Origin: Sphingobacteriales bacterium
Lineage (GTDB): Bacteria; Bacteroidota; Bacteroidia; Chitinophagales; Chitinophagaceae
Assembly: GCA_016708305.1 (NCBI GenBank)
Contig: JADJGB010000002.1
Span: 65,330 to 129,329 of the forward strand
DNA length: 64,000 bases
Reading direction: 5' to 3'
Positions 9,930-19,499 of the stretch are shown here, piece after piece. Position 1 is the stretch's first letter; each line of letters begins with the position of its first letter. The notes under the pieces are model-generated. The model ran no database searches and was not told the DNA's origin. It saw only the letters and a list, made by a program, of their open reading frames with translations. The position numbers were made by a program, and so were the translations under genes.

Positions 9930-11420
<1,491 letters not shown>

Positions 11421-11425
11421 TTTAT

Positions 11426-11974
11426 TTAAATAGATTTTGGGAATAAATATATATAATCCAAATGTGAGGACGTTCGGTGCAGAACAGTTAAATATTCATT
11501 TAATCGGGGTGCATACTGAATGTGATAATCTTCGTGAAGCTTTGTTTTTAAAATCGTTATTGCCTTTTTTACTAAAAGAAAAACCTGATAGTTATACTTT
11601 GTAAAGCATGTTGTAAACGAGTTGGAAGAGTTGGAAAATGGAATTTCCAGAACATCCAAAATCAATTCCATTTCAAGGGCTTTATTCCTGCATACTTTGC
11701 CAAATTCATTAATCCGTTTATTGCAAGCAGCAAACATATTTGCCAATTGCAATTCTTTAGAATATCCTTTGTAACTCTTTCTGTAAAGCATGTTTAAATC
11801 GCTCTTTGCGGTTTCAAATAAATCATGTTCACCATATTCTTTATCAATATAATTAATCAATAAATAATCGTGAAATTGTTTACTTGCTGACGCTGCTTTC
11901 AAAACCAATTTTTGCAACTCCCTTTTTTCTAACGATTCAATTTTGTCTTTAATAATAGGGTTTATTTTTGCCAT
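11426..11974 (-). CDS. Hypothetical protein directly upstream of hsdM
   Basis: 182-aa ORF ending 5 bp before the hsdM start; no motif recognised. Confidence 0.6.
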   Translation of the reverse strand: MAKINPIIKDKIESLEKRELQKLVLKAASASKQFHDYLLINYIDKEYGEHDLFETAKSDLNMLYRKSYKGYSKELQLANMFAACNKRINEFGKVCRNKALEMELILDVLEIPFSNSSNSFTTCFTKYNYQVFLLVKKAITILKTKLHEDYHIQYAPRLNEYLTVLHRTSSHLDYIYLFPKSI

Positions 11975-12092
11975 ACAATATTTGATTTATCATTGAGGTT
12001 TTCAAATTTTTATTATAATGTTTGCTTCCAAATTCTCTATATGATATTTACTATATTTTTACATTATTTATTGCCAAATTATTTTCCTTTAT

Positions 12093-12316
12093 TAGCTTCG
12101 TAGGAGCGTAATATTAATAAAAATAATTTATCTACCGCCATTATTATAGCTCCGTAGGAGCGTAATATTTTTAGGATTAACAATCACCGTTTTTTGTATC
12201 GCTCCTATGGAGCTATTAGGTTGATTATATTTACCTTGTCTATTAAGTTTACCCACCGCTGGGGCTTCGGTATCATTTGCCTCCTCTTTTATTAACCTTT
12301 CGCCCCTACGGGGCTT
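12093..12316. repeat. Dispersed REP-like palindromes in both orientations
   Basis: Plus-orientation copies at 12093 and 12147; inverted copies near 12199-12215 (tcgctcctatggagcta) and 12290-12316 (attaacctttcgcccctacggggctt). Confidence 0.8.
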
Positions 12317-12332
12317 GCGTATCATTTCCGTT

Positions 12333-13426
12333 TAGCTCCGTAGGAGCGTAATATCAACAAAACCACCTTTCATCATTCTCGCTTTTTAGCCCCGTAGGAG
12401 CGTAATGTCAATAAAACCAACAATCATCATCCTCGCTTTTTAGCTCCGTAGGAGCGTAATATCAACAAAACCACCTATCATCATTCTCGCTTTTTAGCCC
12501 CGTAGGAGCGTAATATTAATAGAAATAATTTATTTATCATCACCGGTTAGCTCCGTATGAGCGTAATGTCAATAAAACCAACAATCATCATCCTCGCTTT
12601 TTAGCCCCGTAGGAGCGTAATATCAACAAATCCACCTATCATCATTCTCGCTTTTTAGCTCCGTAGGAGCGTAATATCAATAAATCCAACAATAATCATT
12701 CTCGCTTTTTAGCTCCGTATGAGCGTAATGTCAATAAAACCAACAATCATCATCCTCGCTTTTTAGCTCCGTATGAGCGTAATGTCAATAAAACCAACAA
12801 TCATCATCCTCGCTTTTTAGCCCCGTAGGAGCGTAATATTAATAGAAATAATTTATTTATCATCACCGGTTAGCTCCGTATGAGCGTAATGTCAATAAAA
12901 CCAACAATCATCATCCTCGCTTTTTAGCTCCGTAGGAGCGTAATATCAACAAAACCACCTATCATCATTCTCGCTTTTTAGCCCCGTAGGAGCGTAATAT
13001 TAATAGAAATAATTTATTTATCATCACCGGTTAGCTCCGTATGAGCGTAATGTCAATAAAACCAACAATCATCATCCTCGCTTTTTAGCTCCGTAGGAGC
13101 GTAATATTAATAGAAATAATTTATTTATCATCACCGGTTAGCTCCGTATGAGCGTAATGTCAATAAAACCAACAATCATCATCCTCGCTTTTTAGCTCCG
13201 TAGGAGCGTAATATCAACAAAACCACCTATCATCATTCTCGCTTTTTAGCCCCGTAGGAGCGTAATATTAATAGAAATAATTTATTTATCATCACCGGTT
13301 AGCTCCGTATGAGCGTAATGTCAATAAAACCAACAATCATCATCCTCGCTTTTTAGCTCCGTAGGAGCGTAATATCAATAGAAATAATTTATTTATCATC
13401 ACCGGATAGCTCCGTAGGAGCGACAC
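12333..13426 (+). repeat. Tandem array of 21 palindromic 20-bp repeats (consensus TAGCTCCGTAGGAGCGTAAT) with 20 spacers of 33-34 bp
   Basis: Cores start at 12333, 12387, 12441, 12495, 12548, 12602, 12656, 12710, 12764, 12818, 12871, 12925, 12979, 13032, 13086, 13139, 13193, 13247, 13300, 13354, 13407; hairpin GCTCC-GTA-GGAGC; the last core diverges after GGAGCG. Confidence 0.95.
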
Positions 13427-13883
13427 CATAGTCATCAAATATATATTCCGATTTGAAATCAATTTGGTACACATTTAAAAATTCGATATATTCTTCTCTA
13501 AACGTTTTCTTTCTGTGATGCTCTTCCTGATTCAAAATATAATTGATCACGATTCGTAATTGAGACTGGCTAACGGTAAATGCACCAAAACCCGTTTGCC
13601 ATTCAAATTTCCCAATCACATATTTATTATCGTTGATCCATTTGGATGAATTTGCTTTTATGTCTCGCAATAAATCCGAGAGATTGCAATCCGGTTTTAA
13701 CCCAAGAAGAATATGAATATGATCCGACATGCCATTTATGACCATCAATTTTTGATTTTTGTGGGTAACAATGCCCGTGATGTATTGATACAATGTTTCT
13801 TTCCATTTTTTGGAAATGAGATTGCCTCTGCCTTTTACGGCAAATACCACGTGGATGTATAATTGGGTGTATGTATTAGCCAT
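13389..13883 (-). CDS. tnpA: IS200/IS605-family (Y1 HUH) TnpA, REP-associated type
   Basis: YTQLYIHVVFAVKGR start, HUH motif DHIHIL, WQTGFGAF, catalytic Tyr in YILNQEEHH; no tnpB nearby. Confidence 0.88.
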   Translation of the reverse strand: MANTYTQLYIHVVFAVKGRGNLISKKWKETLYQYITGIVTHKNQKLMVINGMSDHIHILLGLKPDCNLSDLLRDIKANSSKWINDNKYVIGKFEWQTGFGAFTVSQSQLRIVINYILNQEEHHRKKTFREEYIEFLNVYQIDFKSEYIFDDYGVAPTELSGDDK

Positions 13884-13896
13884 TATTGTTATTTTG

Positions 13897-13915
13897 TTTC
13901 GCTCCTACGCAGCTG
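13897..13915 (-). repeat. Degenerate REP copy just upstream of tnpA, inverted relative to the array
   Basis: Reverse complement is CAGCTGCGTAGGAGCGAAA. Confidence 0.7.
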
Positions 13916-13938
13916 TTTGAATATTTTTCTACTTGGGT

Positions 13939-14068
13939 GCTATTAACCTTTCGCCCCGATGGGGCTTTTGTGTCTTTTGTTTCCTTTTTTCTATTAACCT
14001 TTCGCCCCGATGGGGCTTTTGTGTCTTTTGTTTCCTTTTTCTATTAACCTTTCGCCCCGATGGGGCTT
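13939..14068 (-). repeat. Three REP-like copies at 47-bp spacing inside the hsdS 3' end
   Basis: CTATTAACCTTTCGCCCCGATGGGGCTT occurs three times; hairpin GCCCC-ATC-GGGGC; encodes KPHRGERLI repeats. Confidence 0.9.
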
Positions 14069-14756
14069 CCTTTTCTTTCGCTGCTCTTATTCTCTCCAAC
14101 AACTTCTCGGCAGGTTCATCATTGGGGTCTTGCGGAACGAGTTTGCCTTCATAAGCTTTTTTGATAATGCTCAACCGCAGGGCTTCTGCCTGTTGCAAAC
14201 TGCCCTCTATGGTTTCTTCAATTTTATCGCAAACGGAAAGGCGGGATTCGATTTCTTTAACAATTCTATCTTGGTCGTTGTTTTCCATTGGCAGAGGTAT
14301 ATCCATATTAGCAATATCTGTTAGACTTAGATTTGCTCTGGCCACATCAACTACTTTTTCTAAATATTTTTGTTTTGCAACTTCTGCATTTAGAAAATGA
14401 GAGAGATATTTATTTGAAATCGACTTTTTTAAGCGAATAATTGCAACGGCTTGATTAATGTTTGAAATTTTGTCAAGGTTGAAAATTGCGGCTCTTCCAA
14501 TTGAAGCACCAACAAGATTAAATAGGACATCTTCCTTTTGCAAAATTGAACGCTTTTGAATTTTGTTGAACCCTAGACTTAAATACTTGGGATCAGAAAC
14601 ATCTATATAATTTTCACGAACATTTTCACTTGTAACAAAAAGCAATTGGGTTGCATCATTTATGTAGTTAAAGCCTTGCCATTTAGGTGATGCTCCTTTT
14701 GTAATTAGATTGCAATGCTCACCTAGTTTTACTTCATTATTAATCGTTACCCAATT

Positions 14757-15828
14757 TAGTTCGTATTAATTTTCTATGCTGCGTATCTGACGTGGTCTGC
14801 ATGGAAATATTTTTGCACCTGCTTTTTATTGCTTTTTCTTTCATTCATAAAACCTTCAACGTTGGCGCATTTCAGCTTTATTGATAGGACGCTTTTTGCC
14901 GATAACATTAGTCTTTACATCCTGATTCAAATATTCTTGCGCATTCAACTCAGGGCTATAGGGCGGAATGAAAAACACCTCTATTCGATGTTTGCTTTCC
15001 TCCAGCCACACCTTCAATTTTTTGTTTTGTGTGCAGGATGACCATCCGTTACATAGAATATCTTTTGTTTACTATAACGAATCATTCGTTGCAAAAAATC
15101 AATAAATACATCACCGTTAAACTTCTCTATCAGCATAAACTGTAAATGACCTTTATTGCTGATAGCTGAAATCATATTGAGCGAAAACCGTTGTCCTGTT
15201 GATTTCACCACGGGGTTTTGCCTTTAGGCGCATAGCTTCTGCCTGCCTGATGGTCGCTTCGCATACCGGTTTCATCTCCAAAATAAATCGTTCCTTTCTC
15301 CTTAGTTGCCCGCTTCTTTATGGCAGGGTATTCCTTCTCCAACCATTGCTTTACCTGCTCGGGTTTCTGTTCAAATGCTTTGCGGATAGGCTTTTGCGGT
15401 GTATAGCCCCAGCTTTTAAATATCGACCTACCTGCTTCACGCTTAATACAACGCCATATTTCTGTTCGATAAGCTGTTGTACGGCTGCACGCGTCCATAA
15501 ACTAAAGGCCAGTTTTAACCGGTCGGGCATCTTATCCTTTATCAACCGTCGAACTTCGGCAGCCTGCTGGCCGGTTATCTTCTTGCCTCCTTTTACGCCA
15601 CGCTTCTTATTCAAAAGTGAACGCTTGCCTTCTTTTTTGTATTTATTCCATGTTTTATTTACACTCCTTTCTGATACAGAAAATATCTCGGAAGCCTGCT
15701 TTTGAGTGCCCCGTTTGTTTTTTAAGTAGCCCACTATCCGAAAGCGAGTCTCTTCCTGAGCATCTTTGTTCTTACGTTTTGTATTAGCCATGGGCAAATA
15801 TACAAAATATATTTTAAAATAAGAACTA
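14757..15828 (-). mobile_element. IS630-family insertion sequence, ~1.07 kb, transposase broken into 3-4 frames
   Basis: HTH N-terminus; YTPQKP, FGDETG, DGHPAH and PPYSPELN motifs; ends TAGTTC(G/T)TATT in inverted orientation with flanking TA. Confidence 0.85.
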
Positions 15829-16279
15829 AATTATGTCTTTATTAATAATTAAAGAATTTGTCAACCTTCCTTCAAACGCCCATTTCAAAACTCCTTGTCT
15901 ATATACCTTCAATTGCTGCTTTGTGGTTTCTAAATACTCAATGCCTTTATCAAGGTCGGTGAGTAGTTGTTCGAGGTTGGCAAGGATGCGGTGTTGCTCG
16001 GGAAGGGGGGCGAGGGGAATATTTAAGTCCTTAATAATTCCTTGACTAATGTTGGGTTGTGCACCACCTATACTTTGCTTTATCAAGTTACCACGCTGAT
16101 ACAACAAGAAATAATACAAAAGATGTGCATAAATAGCGTCACTTTCAAAAATGCCACAAACAGCTTGATTAGTCGCAGCAGGCACTCCAAGAAAAGCTAA
16201 TTTGCCGACAGTTGCCCCATATAAAGCAATTAGTAAAGTTCCCTTAGGAAATACTTTGTATCCCTTCGTCCAACCCCGT

Positions 16280-17800
16280 CATTGTTGTTTAAAGTTGGCA
16301 TCATAGTTTTGTGGCAGCAGTTGGTATAGGTTTTGCTTTTTGGCGCTGTTGATTTTTTCGAATACGTGGGTAAGCCAGTGTTCGGGATTGATGTTGTGCA
16401 GGCGGCATGTGGCGAACAGGCTATAAAGCATTGCTGCATCCTGTGCCCGCTCGTGGCTTCCGGCAAACAGATAATTTTGCGCCCCAGCGCCACAGGGCGA
16501 ATAGCGTTCTCAATAAGGTTATTATCGATTTGCAAAATGCCGTCTGTGGTGTACACGCACAATTTCTGCCATCGTGTTAATGTATAAGCAATGGCCTTGC
16601 CAAAAGGACTTTTGGGTAATACCTTTTGGTGAGCAACATTTCGGTTAATGTGCTTTGCAAATTGTTTAATACGGGTAGGGCATGTTCATGCCGATGGTTT
16701 TTTATTTGCTCCGGCGTAAAGTTTTCATCGCGGCAATAGGATTCTATTTTATATAAATCCTGTATCAGGCTCAAAACCGCATCCGCATTGGCTTTGTCGT
16801 AATCTTTGGCTTCGTAAAATTTTCTGCGCGCATGCGCCCAGCAGCAAAAGGGGGTAACGCCTTCTACTTTATCGAAAGTTTCGTAAGCATCGTAGCCATC
16901 TGTTTGCAAATAGCCTTTAAACTTGTGCAACATAGCTTTGGGATACAAAGCGCCACGCCCGGGCTGATAATCGAACAACGCTAATTTTCGTTGCGTATCG
17001 TAATACACCCAATAGTATCCTGTATGTGTGGTTTGTTTTTTGTCCTTATCCAAACCTTTATCGTGGTTTCATCCACATTCAAATAGTTTGTATTCAAAAC
17101 CTGCCAGCAATGCAGGTCGTAAACCGGTTCAATCAACCGCATCGCATCTTTTATCCAGCCGCTTACCGTGCTGTGATTGATGTTTACATTTTGACGTTTG
17201 AAGATGGCTAACTGGCGATACACAGGCAGATGGTCCACAAACTTGCTTACCAGCAAATGCGTAAGCAATGATGCGCCTGCAACAGATTTCTCAAGCGGCA
17301 TGGCCGGCAATGAAGCAATGATGCGGCTTGCGTTTAATCCATCATTTGAAGGTTTGATATACTCGGGACGTACATATTGTTTCACAAACAACTCGCCGGG
17401 CCGGTACTCCAGCTTTTCGGTAATTTCTTTACCAACGGGATGCAAACCTTTTACATCCTCTTTGGGCATCAGCTCTATTACTTCGCGGCGAAGGCTTTCC
17501 GGCAAAGGGTTACGTCCGGGATGCTTTACGGTAAGTTTGGTTTGTTGCTTTTGATATTCTTTTACCAGTGTGGTTTTTACCACGTCTATCTGCCCCAGTT
17601 TATCATCAGGGAATAATTCAGGCTGTGAAACGGCGGTTGCATTTGCTGTTACAAACTTCTCTGCCCTGCCGCCAAAGAGCATTTTCTTTAATTCGGCTAA
17701 TTGCAACTGTAGCGATTGTATCTGTAATCGCAATTCAATATTGTGACTCCTTTCCTGTTCAAAGAGGATTTTGTAGTCTATAAAACTATTGCCGGAAGCG
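16280..17800 (-). CDS. tnpC: IS66 transposase TnpC, frameshifted
   Basis: KHPGRNPLP, KFVDHLPVYRQ, VDETTI, LQTDGY, CWAHARRKF and IDNNLIENAIRPVALGRK motifs. Confidence 0.85.
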
Positions 17801-17984
17801 ATATGTGAAACTGTTTGCAAGATGTTTACAGGTAGTACAAATATCATGCTAATAATTGCCTGAAATGCAGTATTGACAGGTATTTCAGACAGTATGGCAA
17901 TAGTGGAATTATTGGCAGGTAAACCTGATTTTTGTCGCACCGTTTTTAAAATTACACCCTGCAAAATAAATTGTAATTGCTGTG

Positions 17985-18254
17985 AGGTGATGCAAAAATG
18001 ATCGTTATGGCTGGCGGGAGGTCTTTCAAAAGTGCCCTGCTCCAATCCTTTTTCATAGAGCGCAAAGCCATCGCTATCCCATTGTAGTAATTTTATTTTG
18101 TTACCACGCCGGCCAATAAAAATGAATACGTCGCCACCAGCACATCCTGTTGCATCTCGTTGCGCACCAGGCCGCTCAACCCGTAGGCTCCCTTGCGAAA
18201 ATCAGCAGTGCCGTTGTAATAAAAGTAGCGACAAGCGGAGTTTAGATGCAACAT
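17985..18254 (-). CDS. tnpB: IS66 accessory protein TnpB, frameshifted
   Basis: Manual translation ADFRKGAYGLSGLV...FIFIGRRGNKIKLLQWDSDGFALYEKGLEQGTF. Confidence 0.8.
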
Positions 18255-18273: not shown

Positions 18274-18537
18274 CTATATTAATACTGCCCAACTCAAGCC
18301 GCACACCATTAGGGTAGCAGATAGTTGCGGCACTGCCGCGGTGGCTATCGGTGTCACCTGCGTGAAAGTGGGTGTGGTCGCTGCGTTAATAGGCAACCGT
18401 TTTTGCCAGTAATAATATTTGGATGCCGCAAGCCGGTGTTCTTTGCAATAAGATACAACCGTTTGGCCGCTTGTGCGGCAGGCTTCAATGTGGGCGTGCA
18501 TTATACCGGCACGGTCGGAGGTATTGTTAGTTTCCAT
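18274..18537 (-). CDS. IS66 accessory protein TnpA (HTH-like)
   Basis: SGQTVVSYCKEHRL..SKYYYWQKR; first gene inside the inverted repeat. Confidence 0.7.
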   Translation of the reverse strand: METNNTSDRAGIMHAHIEACRTSGQTVVSYCKEHRLAASKYYYWQKRLPINAATTPTFTQVTPIATAAVPQLSATLMVCGLSWAVLI

Positions 18538-18809: not shown

Positions 18810-19499
18810 TCATGATTTGTTGGGGTTTTCTGAACGGGTTAAAGAATCGCCTTCCCAATTTTTGGGATTGTTAATGATATATTTTTTTATTCGCAGGTAT
18901 TCATCCCTGTTTCGGATGATATGGTCATGATAATTGGGTTGAAAAAAATGGTTGTGCCGATTGTATTTGGGTATAACCAATTTGTTATCGTCAATATAAT
19001 CATCAATTTTAGAATTGACCCCCGATTTGAACCCTGCCATAAACGATGAAATGGATTTGGGTTTGCGAATTAAATGGGGCGGTTGGGGGGAATGTGGATT
19101 CGGCTGCGTTTCCGATTTTGGTTGTTGCGGATTTGGTTGTTGCGGATTTGGTTGTTGTAGAGGCGCACGGCCGTGCGCCTCTACAACAACAACAACGTTA
19201 CCTAAATCATTGGTATTTTTATCATCCATTTTTTGCAAAACCACAATCGCGTGCAAATGGTTGGGCATGATGATATATTCATCCAAAAACAATTCCTGCC
19301 TAATTTCAAATGATTTTAACCATTGGGATTGCACAATCTTTCCAAAATCGGATAGTATCATTTGTCCATTTTTTATTTCACCCAAAATACATTCTCTGTT
19401 TTGGGTAACCAACGTGATGAAATAATATCCGTTACCTGCATAATCCCACCCTTTTAATCTGTTAGATTCAATTCTGTATTTCCCTGCAAATTTTTCCAT
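18810..19499 (-). CDS. REP-associated tyrosine transposase-like HUH nuclease (RAYT/Y1)
   Basis: RLKGWDY..GYYFIT, MPNHLHAI (HUH), QPNYHDHIIR and KYIINNP motifs; 1-bp overlap with the hsdR stop and 4-bp overlap with the hsdS start. Confidence 0.88.
   Translation of the reverse strand: MEKFAGKYRIESNRLKGWDYAGNGYYFITLVTQNRECILGEIKNGQMILSDFGKIVQSQWLKSFEIRQELFLDEYIIMPNHLHAIVVLQKMDDKNTNDLGNVVVVVEAHGRAPLQQPNPQQPNPQQPKSETQPNPHSPQPPHLIRKPKSISSFMAGFKSGVNSKIDDYIDDNKLVIPKYNRHNHFFQPNYHDHIIRNRDEYLRIKKYIINNPKNWEGDSLTRSENPNKS
19151..19190. repeat. Perfect 40-bp palindrome inside the RAYT gene
   Basis: GTTGTTGTAGAGGCGCACGG|CCGTGCGCCTCTACAACAAC; next to three ~15-bp tandem units encoding QQP(N/K)(P/S). Confidence 0.9.

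Follow-up and report, generated by a model that had tools for sequence, protein, structure and literature searches.

A hairpin array at the 3' end of a Y1 transposase gene, probably the amplified end module of a REPtron-like cassette

Why should a regular array of short palindromic repeats run into the end of a transposase gene, inside a restriction-modification (RM) operon? The question is raised by contig JADJGB010000002.1 of a Sphingobacteriales bacterium (assembly GCA_016708305.1), of which we analysed a stretch of 64,000 nt; this whole stretch is called the window, and positions are counted within it. Here, 21 tandem units, each made of a hairpin core and a spacer, end in tnpA, the gene of a Y1 HUH single-strand-DNA transposase (Table 1). 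An earlier note, made from the sequence alone, had likened the array to a CRISPR array. We consider it likely that the array is instead the amplified cognate 3' end module of a REPtron-like cassette, resembling the pairing of repetitive extragenic palindromes (REPs) with REP-associated tyrosine transposases (RAYTs). Such a pattern is common; the array stands out by its unusual size and does not represent a new immune-type system.

Anatomy of the array

A degenerate form of the core (TAGCYCCGTAKGAGCG, at most one mismatch) is found 24 times in the window, as opposed to no match in 100 dinucleotide-preserving shuffles. Twenty-one of these matches lie on the plus strand between 12333 and 13422, with a period of 53/54 bp. 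A table of the units reproduces the counts of the earlier note: 21 direct copies, with spacer A present five times, B eight times and C six times, one hybrid, and a final core inside tnpA. Written as core variant followed by spacer type, the order is GA cB GA cC kB cA G? kB kB cC kB GA cC kB GC kB GA cC kB GC G. The 21 cores are thus confirmed, but the hairpin that the earlier note gave for all of them is present in eight units only, as there are three core variants. Variant G (TAGCTCCGTAGGAGCG, eight copies) has a perfect 5-bp stem and a folding energy of -4.2 kcal/mol as single-stranded DNA (ssDNA). Variant c (TAGCCCCGTAGGAGCG, six copies) carries a C-A mismatch in the stem (-1.9 kcal/mol), and variant k (TAGCTCCGTATGAGCG, seven copies) has a stem of 4 bp (-3.0 kcal/mol). 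In the array units the hairpin is followed by a tail motif, TAAT-AT-T/C-AA-T-AGAAA, also written TAAT-AT-(T/C)AATAGAAA.

Cores and spacers are not combined freely. The k core always precedes spacer B, and kB is present as seven identical units. The three spacer types do recur, as had been noted, but they are not separate: A and B are identical at 29 of 34 bases, and an alignment of B with the first spacer between hairpins in an orthologous locus (L001) matches at 26 of 39 positions. The C-type spacer holds the final codons and stop of tnpA (SGDDK*), and the last 12 codons of the gene (GVAPTELSGDDK*) are the final core and the C-type tail of the array. All three spacer types are thus divergent versions of a single module, in which a gene-tail spacer follows a hairpin. 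Since the spacers are paralogs and C carries the tnpA stop, the whole array consists of copies of this module.

The same picture emerges at a larger scale. Tandem Repeats Finder (TRF) reports a period of 54 bp with 19.5 copies, together with higher-order periods of 107 and 161 bp, and the match, 78% at period 54, climbs to 87% at period 161, so that multi-unit blocks are more alike than single units. Units 11-15 and 16-20 form a duplicated 268-bp block with two mismatches (99.3% identity), and the array is composed of 107-, 161- and 268-bp blocks. In its repeat structure, the array therefore behaves as a higher-order tandem repeat (minisatellite) and not as the product of spacer acquisition. 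No open reading frame (ORF) of at least 50 aa passes through it. Its limits, 12333-13426, stand as first described, but further copies of the hairpin lie beyond them, at 12093, 12147, 12200 and 13900, and units of a related hairpin at 13940-14068. The degenerate core at 13900-13915 occupies the proximal 5' hairpin position, which is canonical in homologous loci, and the 5'-flank units at 13940-14068 overlap the 3' tail of an hsdS fragment.

The regular spacing and the palindromic repeat are what the array shares with CRISPR arrays, and they are the points in favour of an orphan or degenerate CRISPR, or of a CRISPR-like adaptive array in which the HUH enzyme serves as integrase. We regard this reading as extremely improbable. 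There are only three spacer types, none unique, and they are paralogous to each other and to the 3' end of tnpA; core variants are linked to spacer types; the core, at 20 bp, is below the length of a CRISPR repeat; and there is no leader. No cas gene is found among the neighbours of the array, as the earlier note had already observed. Cas1 genes are present in this genome only at C1:349314 and C1:519422. They belong to genuine CRISPR-Cas loci (C1:349314-351602 and C1:519422-523859; Cas1 at 187.7 and 103.5 bits) and stand beside arrays of unrelated repeats, with periods of 64 bp x 15 and 76 bp x 40. With units that are paralogs of a whole module, tnpA stop codon included, the CRISPR analogy is abandoned and a false lead removed.

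Could the array be an artefact, in which a long-read mis-assembly inflated a repeat of 2-3 units? We compared the window with Logan contigs, assembled from short reads, of four metagenomes (wastewater, soil, biogas, bioreactor) that come from different studies. In all four, the contigs break within the array, and all four contain one extra T after 12055. The missing T is probably a homopolymer error, which indicates that the assembly is long-read and indel-prone; both observations lend the artefact some credit. A collapsed 188-nt contig (13191-13378), however, has a depth of 13.7-34.9, against 4.2-11.5 for single-copy flanks. The ratio of 2.4-5.8 is to be compared with the 4.9 that the assembled array predicts (mean 31-mer multiplicity). 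Independent samples therefore agree that the array is multi-copy, with a number of copies that may vary from one population to the next. Random read error would not produce its ordered higher-order structure, and even larger arrays exist in relatives assembled by other groups. An artefact is thus very improbable. The earlier note had asked for such a check on reads; it was carried out here on short-read contigs.

The transposase and its hairpin partners

The gene that the array runs into has intact motifs and stands alone, without TnpB, both as the earlier note had stated. Its motifs are DHIH, EWQ and YILNQEEHH, and the DHIH, WQ and Y motifs are invariant in a 23-sequence alignment of homologs. 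The signature of TnpA-Y1 subclass 1.2 is DH[IV]H, WQ and Y-x3-Q-x2-HH (Quentin, Siguier, Chandler, Fichant 2018, PMC6006769), and its hosts are Bacteroidetes or Cyanobacteria (PMC6006769). On its motifs, we assign TnpA to this subclass. It also agrees with the published description in size (~150 aa), its conserved C-terminal domain, its Bacteroidota host, a behaviour unlike that of an insertion sequence (IS), and low copy number with divergent paralogs. This genome contains four subclass 1.2 paralogs of 36-52% identity (0-7 in the genomes of relatives), and no near-identical tnpA copy, none exceeding 52%.

Among NCBIfam models, TnpA scores 70 bits with IS200 (NF033573, cut-off 55) and 29.9 bits with REP_Tyr_transpos (NF047646, cut-off 80). 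The latter score, and a Y motif (YILNQ) that does not end in NP, set it apart from class 2 RAYTs (TnpA-REP). In the PDB, sequence matches are to IS200/IS605 TnpAs only. An AlphaFold model (predicted local distance difference test, pLDDT, 76.5) retrieves the TnpAs of ISDra2, IS608 and IS200 at Foldseek ranks 1-29 (E ~2e-8), ahead of the E. coli RAYT 4ER8 at rank 30 (E 2e-6).

A protein database search with TnpA returned 6,831 proteins at E<=1e-10, the best of them 70-88% identical and many on ~1-kb contigs; named homologs come from Saprospiraceae, Chitinophagales and Flavobacterium. We compared 80 tnpA loci from named genomes and counted hairpin positions over 78 of them. Perfect hairpins, with stems of 5 bp or more, are found in a span of 100 nt at the stop codon in 55 of 78 loci, against a background of 6.4% (P ~1e-47). 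Upstream of the start codon, the count is 47 of 78, against a background of 6.4% in the same loci (P ~5e-36). The next 3' hairpin follows 47-54 nt onward, mostly at 50-52 nt, a spacing that corresponds to the 53/54-bp period of our array. The usual pattern of the family is one or two hairpins with a 5-bp stem and a 3-nt loop, ~50 nt apart, on each side of the gene. After the hairpin comes a conserved tail, G-(A/T)-(C/A)-AT-AT, which often extends as ...TTATAGAA.

The hairpins on the two sides are mutually inverted, and their stems are equal in 18 of 40 loci (5.9 expected), the cognate inverted flanks of a REPtron. Stems are clade-specific and differ by paired changes (GCTCC, GCCCC, GTCCC, ATCCC, ACCCC, GACCCC). 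Their type tracks the protein tree, with 20 changes against a shuffle mean of 32.4 and none of 500 shuffles as low. As the alignment was chosen for perfect hairpins, the argument is built on positional enrichment and tree-label tests and not on a covariation count. Read in frame, the hairpin GCTCC-TAC-GGAGC yields the C-terminal APTEL that the closest homologs have in common.

Arrays are also common beside these genes. Counting arrays with a TRF score of at least 250, we found one at most 1 kb from the gene in 20 of 80 loci, and elsewhere in only three loci, a ~17-fold enrichment per kb. They include 26 bp x 10.8 (L017), 56 bp x 8.7 (L072), 138 bp x 6.2 (L038) and 220 bp x 6.5 (L078, 1.4 kb). 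Close relatives have wholly different unit designs. In L094/L095 (protein 88% identical) the 3' array extends over 2.4 kb in 192-bp units, and that of L093 (88%) measures ~0.9 kb; L001 (85%) and L098-L100 (83%) have 2-5 hairpins per side and no array. In the genome studied here, arrays, each with hairpins of its own, also accompany two of the three other paralogs (C8:1012948-1013642 and C2:195150-195641). The survey of homologs that the earlier note had called for therefore ties the array to the Y1 gene evolutionarily as well as physically. Arrays of this kind are, contrary to that note, recognisable from the literature: tandem REPs with flanking DNA have been described (PMC3733652). The presence of hairpin arrays beside the genes would explain why the latter so often end up on ~1-kb contigs in short-read assemblies. 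In a locus of the same genus, L082:1927-2385, a 194-bp repeat x2.4 begins within the last 24 nt of the tnpA homolog, so that the 3' end of the gene is again part of the repeated unit.

In some hosts the hairpins have also left the gene. In five other host genomes, the pattern GCTCCNNNGGAGC is counted 82, 88, 58, 125 and 27 times (control pattern 0-1), partly in 25-bp tandem arrays at several loci; three further genomes have it 3-4 times. The hairpin system is thus REP/RAYT-like in some hosts and local in this genome, where high-copy extragenic hairpins of the REPtron kind are not found. An orphan trio of the array hairpin at C1:600908-601193, two of them 51 nt apart and without a nearby Y1 gene, is the only sign of dispersal here.

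How does this compare with known systems? Like REPtrons, in which RAYT genes go with REP/BIME or REPIN sequences (Nunvar 2010; Bertels & Rainey 2011, PMC3116915; Ton-Hoang 2012; Bertels 2017, PMC5581495), the locus combines a single-copy Y1 gene with its own inverted flanking hairpins, and the hairpins co-vary with the protein clade, multiply and cluster; tandem clusters are known there, too. In contrast to REPtrons, the protein is of class 1 (IS200-like) and not class 2, stems measure only 5 bp, modules form direct doublets ~50 nt apart instead of REPIN inverted pairs, and dispersal in this genome is almost absent. Members of IS200/IS605 (IS608, ISDra2) are the best matches in sequence (Y1_Tnp) and fold and share the logic of a hairpin followed by a tail. 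However, IS hairpins lie on the same strand, whereas the flanking hairpins here lie on opposite strands. The gene also differs from an IS in copy number and ends: it has no near-identical copies and no TnpB, and it is syntenic in some genera (hemF-hemB in Flavobacterium). The clusters of the GTAG/CGTC REP super-families (Di Nocera et al. 2013, PMC3733652) resemble the array in their head-to-tail REPs reiterated with flanking DNA, their 5-bp stems and their discovery by tandem-repeat searches, and our hairpin contains GTAG (CC-GTA-GG). Those clusters belong to hosts of class 2 RAYTs, mostly Proteobacteria, and were not described as expansions of a transposase 3' end. Subclass 1.2 as published (PMC6006769) differs in another respect: the gene here is bracketed by fixed-position hairpins, which form arrays and disperse in some genomes, and such hairpin partners are absent from the description of the subclass. 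A widespread Bacteroidota Y1 subclass (~6,800 homologs at E<=1e-10) is thereby shown to have hairpin partners of its own, which provide a concrete candidate substrate for an uncharacterised HUH enzyme.

Growth of the array and movement of the cassette

IS200/IS605 TnpA and TnpA-REP recognise a hairpin and its tail on ssDNA. By analogy, TnpA may recognise its own end module, the 5-bp-stem, 3-nt-loop hairpin and conserved tail, in the same form. At the 3' end, this module, together with the last codons and stop of tnpA, has been copied in place to 21 tandem units through duplications of 1-, 2-, 3- and 5-unit blocks. Whether the enzyme took part in this copying is a separate question.

With moderate confidence, we take the most likely route of growth to have started from the canonical doublet as its seed and to have led through replication slippage between direct modules or their unequal recombination. 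This route is favoured because it is a unit with a weakened hairpin, kB, that has been amplified most (seven identical copies), because the latest event is the 268-bp block duplication, a product to be expected of unequal exchange, and because the genome has many unrelated tandem arrays. Three of its 22 strongest arrays are at most 200 bp away from a subclass 1.2 gene and ~19 lie far from any Y1 gene, so that the host itself is prone to expansions. Alternatively, TnpA may have built the array by cutting at the tail of one module and joining it to the equivalent site of a neighbour, or by reinserting a circle of n modules; the array would then result directly from HUH activity and record it. 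For REP arrays, a comparable model has been put forward (PMC3733652). It would account for the ~17-fold enrichment of arrays beside these genes, with independent origins and different unit designs in many lineages, for the hairpin and conserved tail motif that every unit carries like an IS200/IS605 end, and for the end of the cassette indel described below, which directly follows such a tail. The weakened hairpin of kB, the block duplication and the expansion-prone host count against it, and units 7 and 20, which are chimeric, offer too few differing bases for any junction to be mapped to a fixed site. We therefore see an enzyme-built array as possible, and as less probable than growth by slippage or unequal exchange.

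A third possibility is that the array has a function of its own, as a sink that titrates TnpA, as an insulating or mRNA-stabilising structure between hsdS/tnpA and ORF182/hsdM, or as a precursor of small RNAs. It lies within a co-directional string of genes and is therefore probably transcribed. In metatranscriptome contigs from a 93% relative, tnpA, ORF182 and hsdM are covered, and the array is matched by a few pieces of 38-53 nt only. In addition, E. coli REPs are reported to act as elements of 3' untranslated regions. Yet L001 and L098-L100, the nearest relatives with the gene at this place in the operon, manage with 2-5 hairpins and no array, which is therefore dispensable there. Unit designs differ completely between relatives, most array hairpins are degraded, and the operon is already broken. 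A scan of 9-17 kb with Rfam gave a chance microRNA match only, which leaves no known RNA family, and the hairpins are weak and lack the T or U tract of a terminator. The nuclease decoy and the small RNAs suggested in the earlier note thus find no support in the Rfam scan or the metatranscriptome contigs, and we judge a function of the array itself unlikely. The array would require no such function, and it probably expanded freely as the RM operon was already broken.

Several points weigh against our reading of the array as an amplified end module. Changes that weaken the stem are found in 13 of the 21 cores, so that most units may not be TnpA substrates. The hairpin 16-mer occurs 35 times in this genome, 31 of them at two tnpA loci, and is thus not dispersed as a REP would be. 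The count of 21 units comes from the assembly, as short-read contigs do not span the array. Slippage and enzyme-driven growth are separated by indirect arguments. To our knowledge, binding or cleavage has not been demonstrated for any member of subclass 1.2. Finally, this subclass has been published as generally without associated secondary structures or REPs (PMC6006769). The absence of terminal secondary structure does not hold here or in most of the ~80 loci; what the hairpins contradict is a descriptive statement on the subclass, and not one of its defining motifs.

The cassette as a whole comes and goes between close relatives. In a metagenome contig (L101), whose ORF182 is 95% identical to the copy in the window, the alignment follows the window from 14203 to 14036 at 91% and continues directly from 12085 to 11313 at 94%. 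The contig lacks the 1,950 bp in between, which hold two hairpin units as well as tnpA, the array and the mixed cluster. At the junction it has a single hairpin unit (AAGCCCCATCGGGGCGAAAGGTTAATAGAAAAAA), and both boundaries of the cassette adjoin hairpin tails with a loose TAATA..AAAGGAAA motif in common. Filled and empty alleles are both present in public data, and their alignment shows that the 1.95-kb cassette is a presence/absence polymorphism, which arose by insertion or deletion. An allele pair with one leftover hairpin is a natural entry point to the question of how such cassettes move. One may go further and propose that subclass 1.2 enzymes, published as orphans without structures, are the engines of a second, IS200-derived REP system. 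In it, the enzyme would add and remove end modules by cutting and joining single strands, with the tandem arrays as its direct products, and would carry the hairpin-bounded cassette into and out of operons, Type I RM loci among them. We put this forward tentatively and regard it as rather doubtful.

The broken RM operon and other neighbours

The location of the array between hsdS and hsdM of a Type I RM operon, as first described, was confirmed. On the minus strand the order is hsdR, a RAYT-like ORF, IS66/IS630-like genes, an hsdS fragment, tnpA, the array, ORF182 and hsdM (Table 1). Contigs of three metagenomes show no indel at the hsdM end, so that the truncation of this gene is real and not an assembly error. 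With hsdM truncated and hsdS interrupted, the RM system is degraded, a state that would fit an array expanding without cost.

Table 1. Coordinates of the hairpin features and genes discussed in the text
Feature	Position in the window	Strand	Details
hsdM	10314..11420	-	ends at residue 368 (...VLFFDN); L001 orthologue 500 aa
ORF182	11426..11974	-	conserved 182-aa protein, function not assigned; 5 nt upstream of hsdM; outside cassette
Whole cassette	12086..14035	-	hairpin units, tnpA, array, mixed cluster
Two extra direct core copies	12093..12166	+	at 12093 and 12147; outside array
Mixed opposite-orientation cluster	12200..12314	-	inverted core 12200-12215; imperfect hairpin ~12252-12264; GCCCC-TAC-GGGGC 12302-12314
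Array	12333..13426	+	21 tandem units of 53/54 bp, each a 20-bp core (TAGCYCCGTAKGAGCGTAAT) and a 33/34-bp tail
tnpA	13389..13883	-	Y1 HUH single-strand-DNA transposase, 164 aa; Pfam Y1_Tnp (PF01797) 3.4e-27
Degenerate inverted core	13900..13915	-	CAGCTGCGTAGGAGCG on minus strand; 17 nt upstream of tnpA start
hsdS fragment	13929..14645	-	one target-recognition domain; hairpin-encoded tail
5'-flank hairpin, three 51-bp units	13940..14068	-	related hairpin, AAGCCCCATCGGGGCGAAAGGTTAATAG on minus strand; hairpins at 13953, 14004, 14054
IS630-like helix-turn-helix gene	15351-15797		splits hsdS
Second hsdS fragment	15826-16185
IS66 element	16230-18045		in three frames
IS66 TnpA accessory gene	18274-18537
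ORF229	18810-19499	-	229-aa class-2 RAYT-like Y1 HUH gene; between hsdR and hsdS start
hsdR	22054-19499	-

Homologs of 83-85% identity hold the same hsdS-tnpA-hsdM position in intact operons, and all four subclass 1.2 paralogs of this genome adjoin RM genes. The neighbours of the other three are an hsdR-like gene with an 875-aa methyltransferase (C8:1012476-1016391) and fragmented Eco57I-like type IIG genes (C2:192327-199405 and C10:400105-404463). Across the homologs, RM genes adjoin tnpA in five of 80 loci by tblastn with RM queries, with a few more by RM Pfam domains, and the other neighbours are housekeeping genes. RM linkage was thus rejected as a general rule and is read as an enrichment. 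In Flavobacterium and relatives (L008, L009, L015, L016, L018-L020, L022 and others), the tnpA homolog lies between hemF and hemB. The coproporphyrinogen oxidase gene (hemF) is the upstream neighbour in 8 of 70 loci and the delta-aminolevulinate dehydratase gene (hemB) the downstream neighbour in 6 of 68, a conserved synteny that argues for long residence of the tnpA homolog.

ORF182 was considered as a partner of tnpA and rejected, as its family occurs without tnpA and has no match in the 80 tnpA loci. The family counts ~143 proteins, nearly all of exactly 182 aa and many on ~1-kb contigs. Its members are found directly upstream of hsdM (L107-L109), near Fic genes, or alone between the genes of aconitase and methionyl-tRNA synthetase (L105). 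ORF182 has no match in Pfam or NCBIfam, and none of tnpA, ORF182 and ORF229 has one in the PADLOC library of defence systems.

The genome is generally rich in minisatellites. Other large non-coding arrays, none of them near a Y1 gene, are located at C8:989830-991424 (120 bp x 13), at C8:997648-999091 (77 bp x 18.5) and at C8:853679-856195, where the repeats belong to a dispersed family of ~79 bp that contains an inverted repeat. Contig C4 (7.9 kb) consists largely of G and C runs, with 70% G+C compared to 38.8% for the genome, and is probably an artefact or a contaminant. ORF229 scores 62.9 bits with REP_Tyr_transpos (NF047646), below the cut-off of 80; it carries the motifs NHLH and YIINNP and a low-complexity PQQPN insert, and has two paralogs on contig C1.

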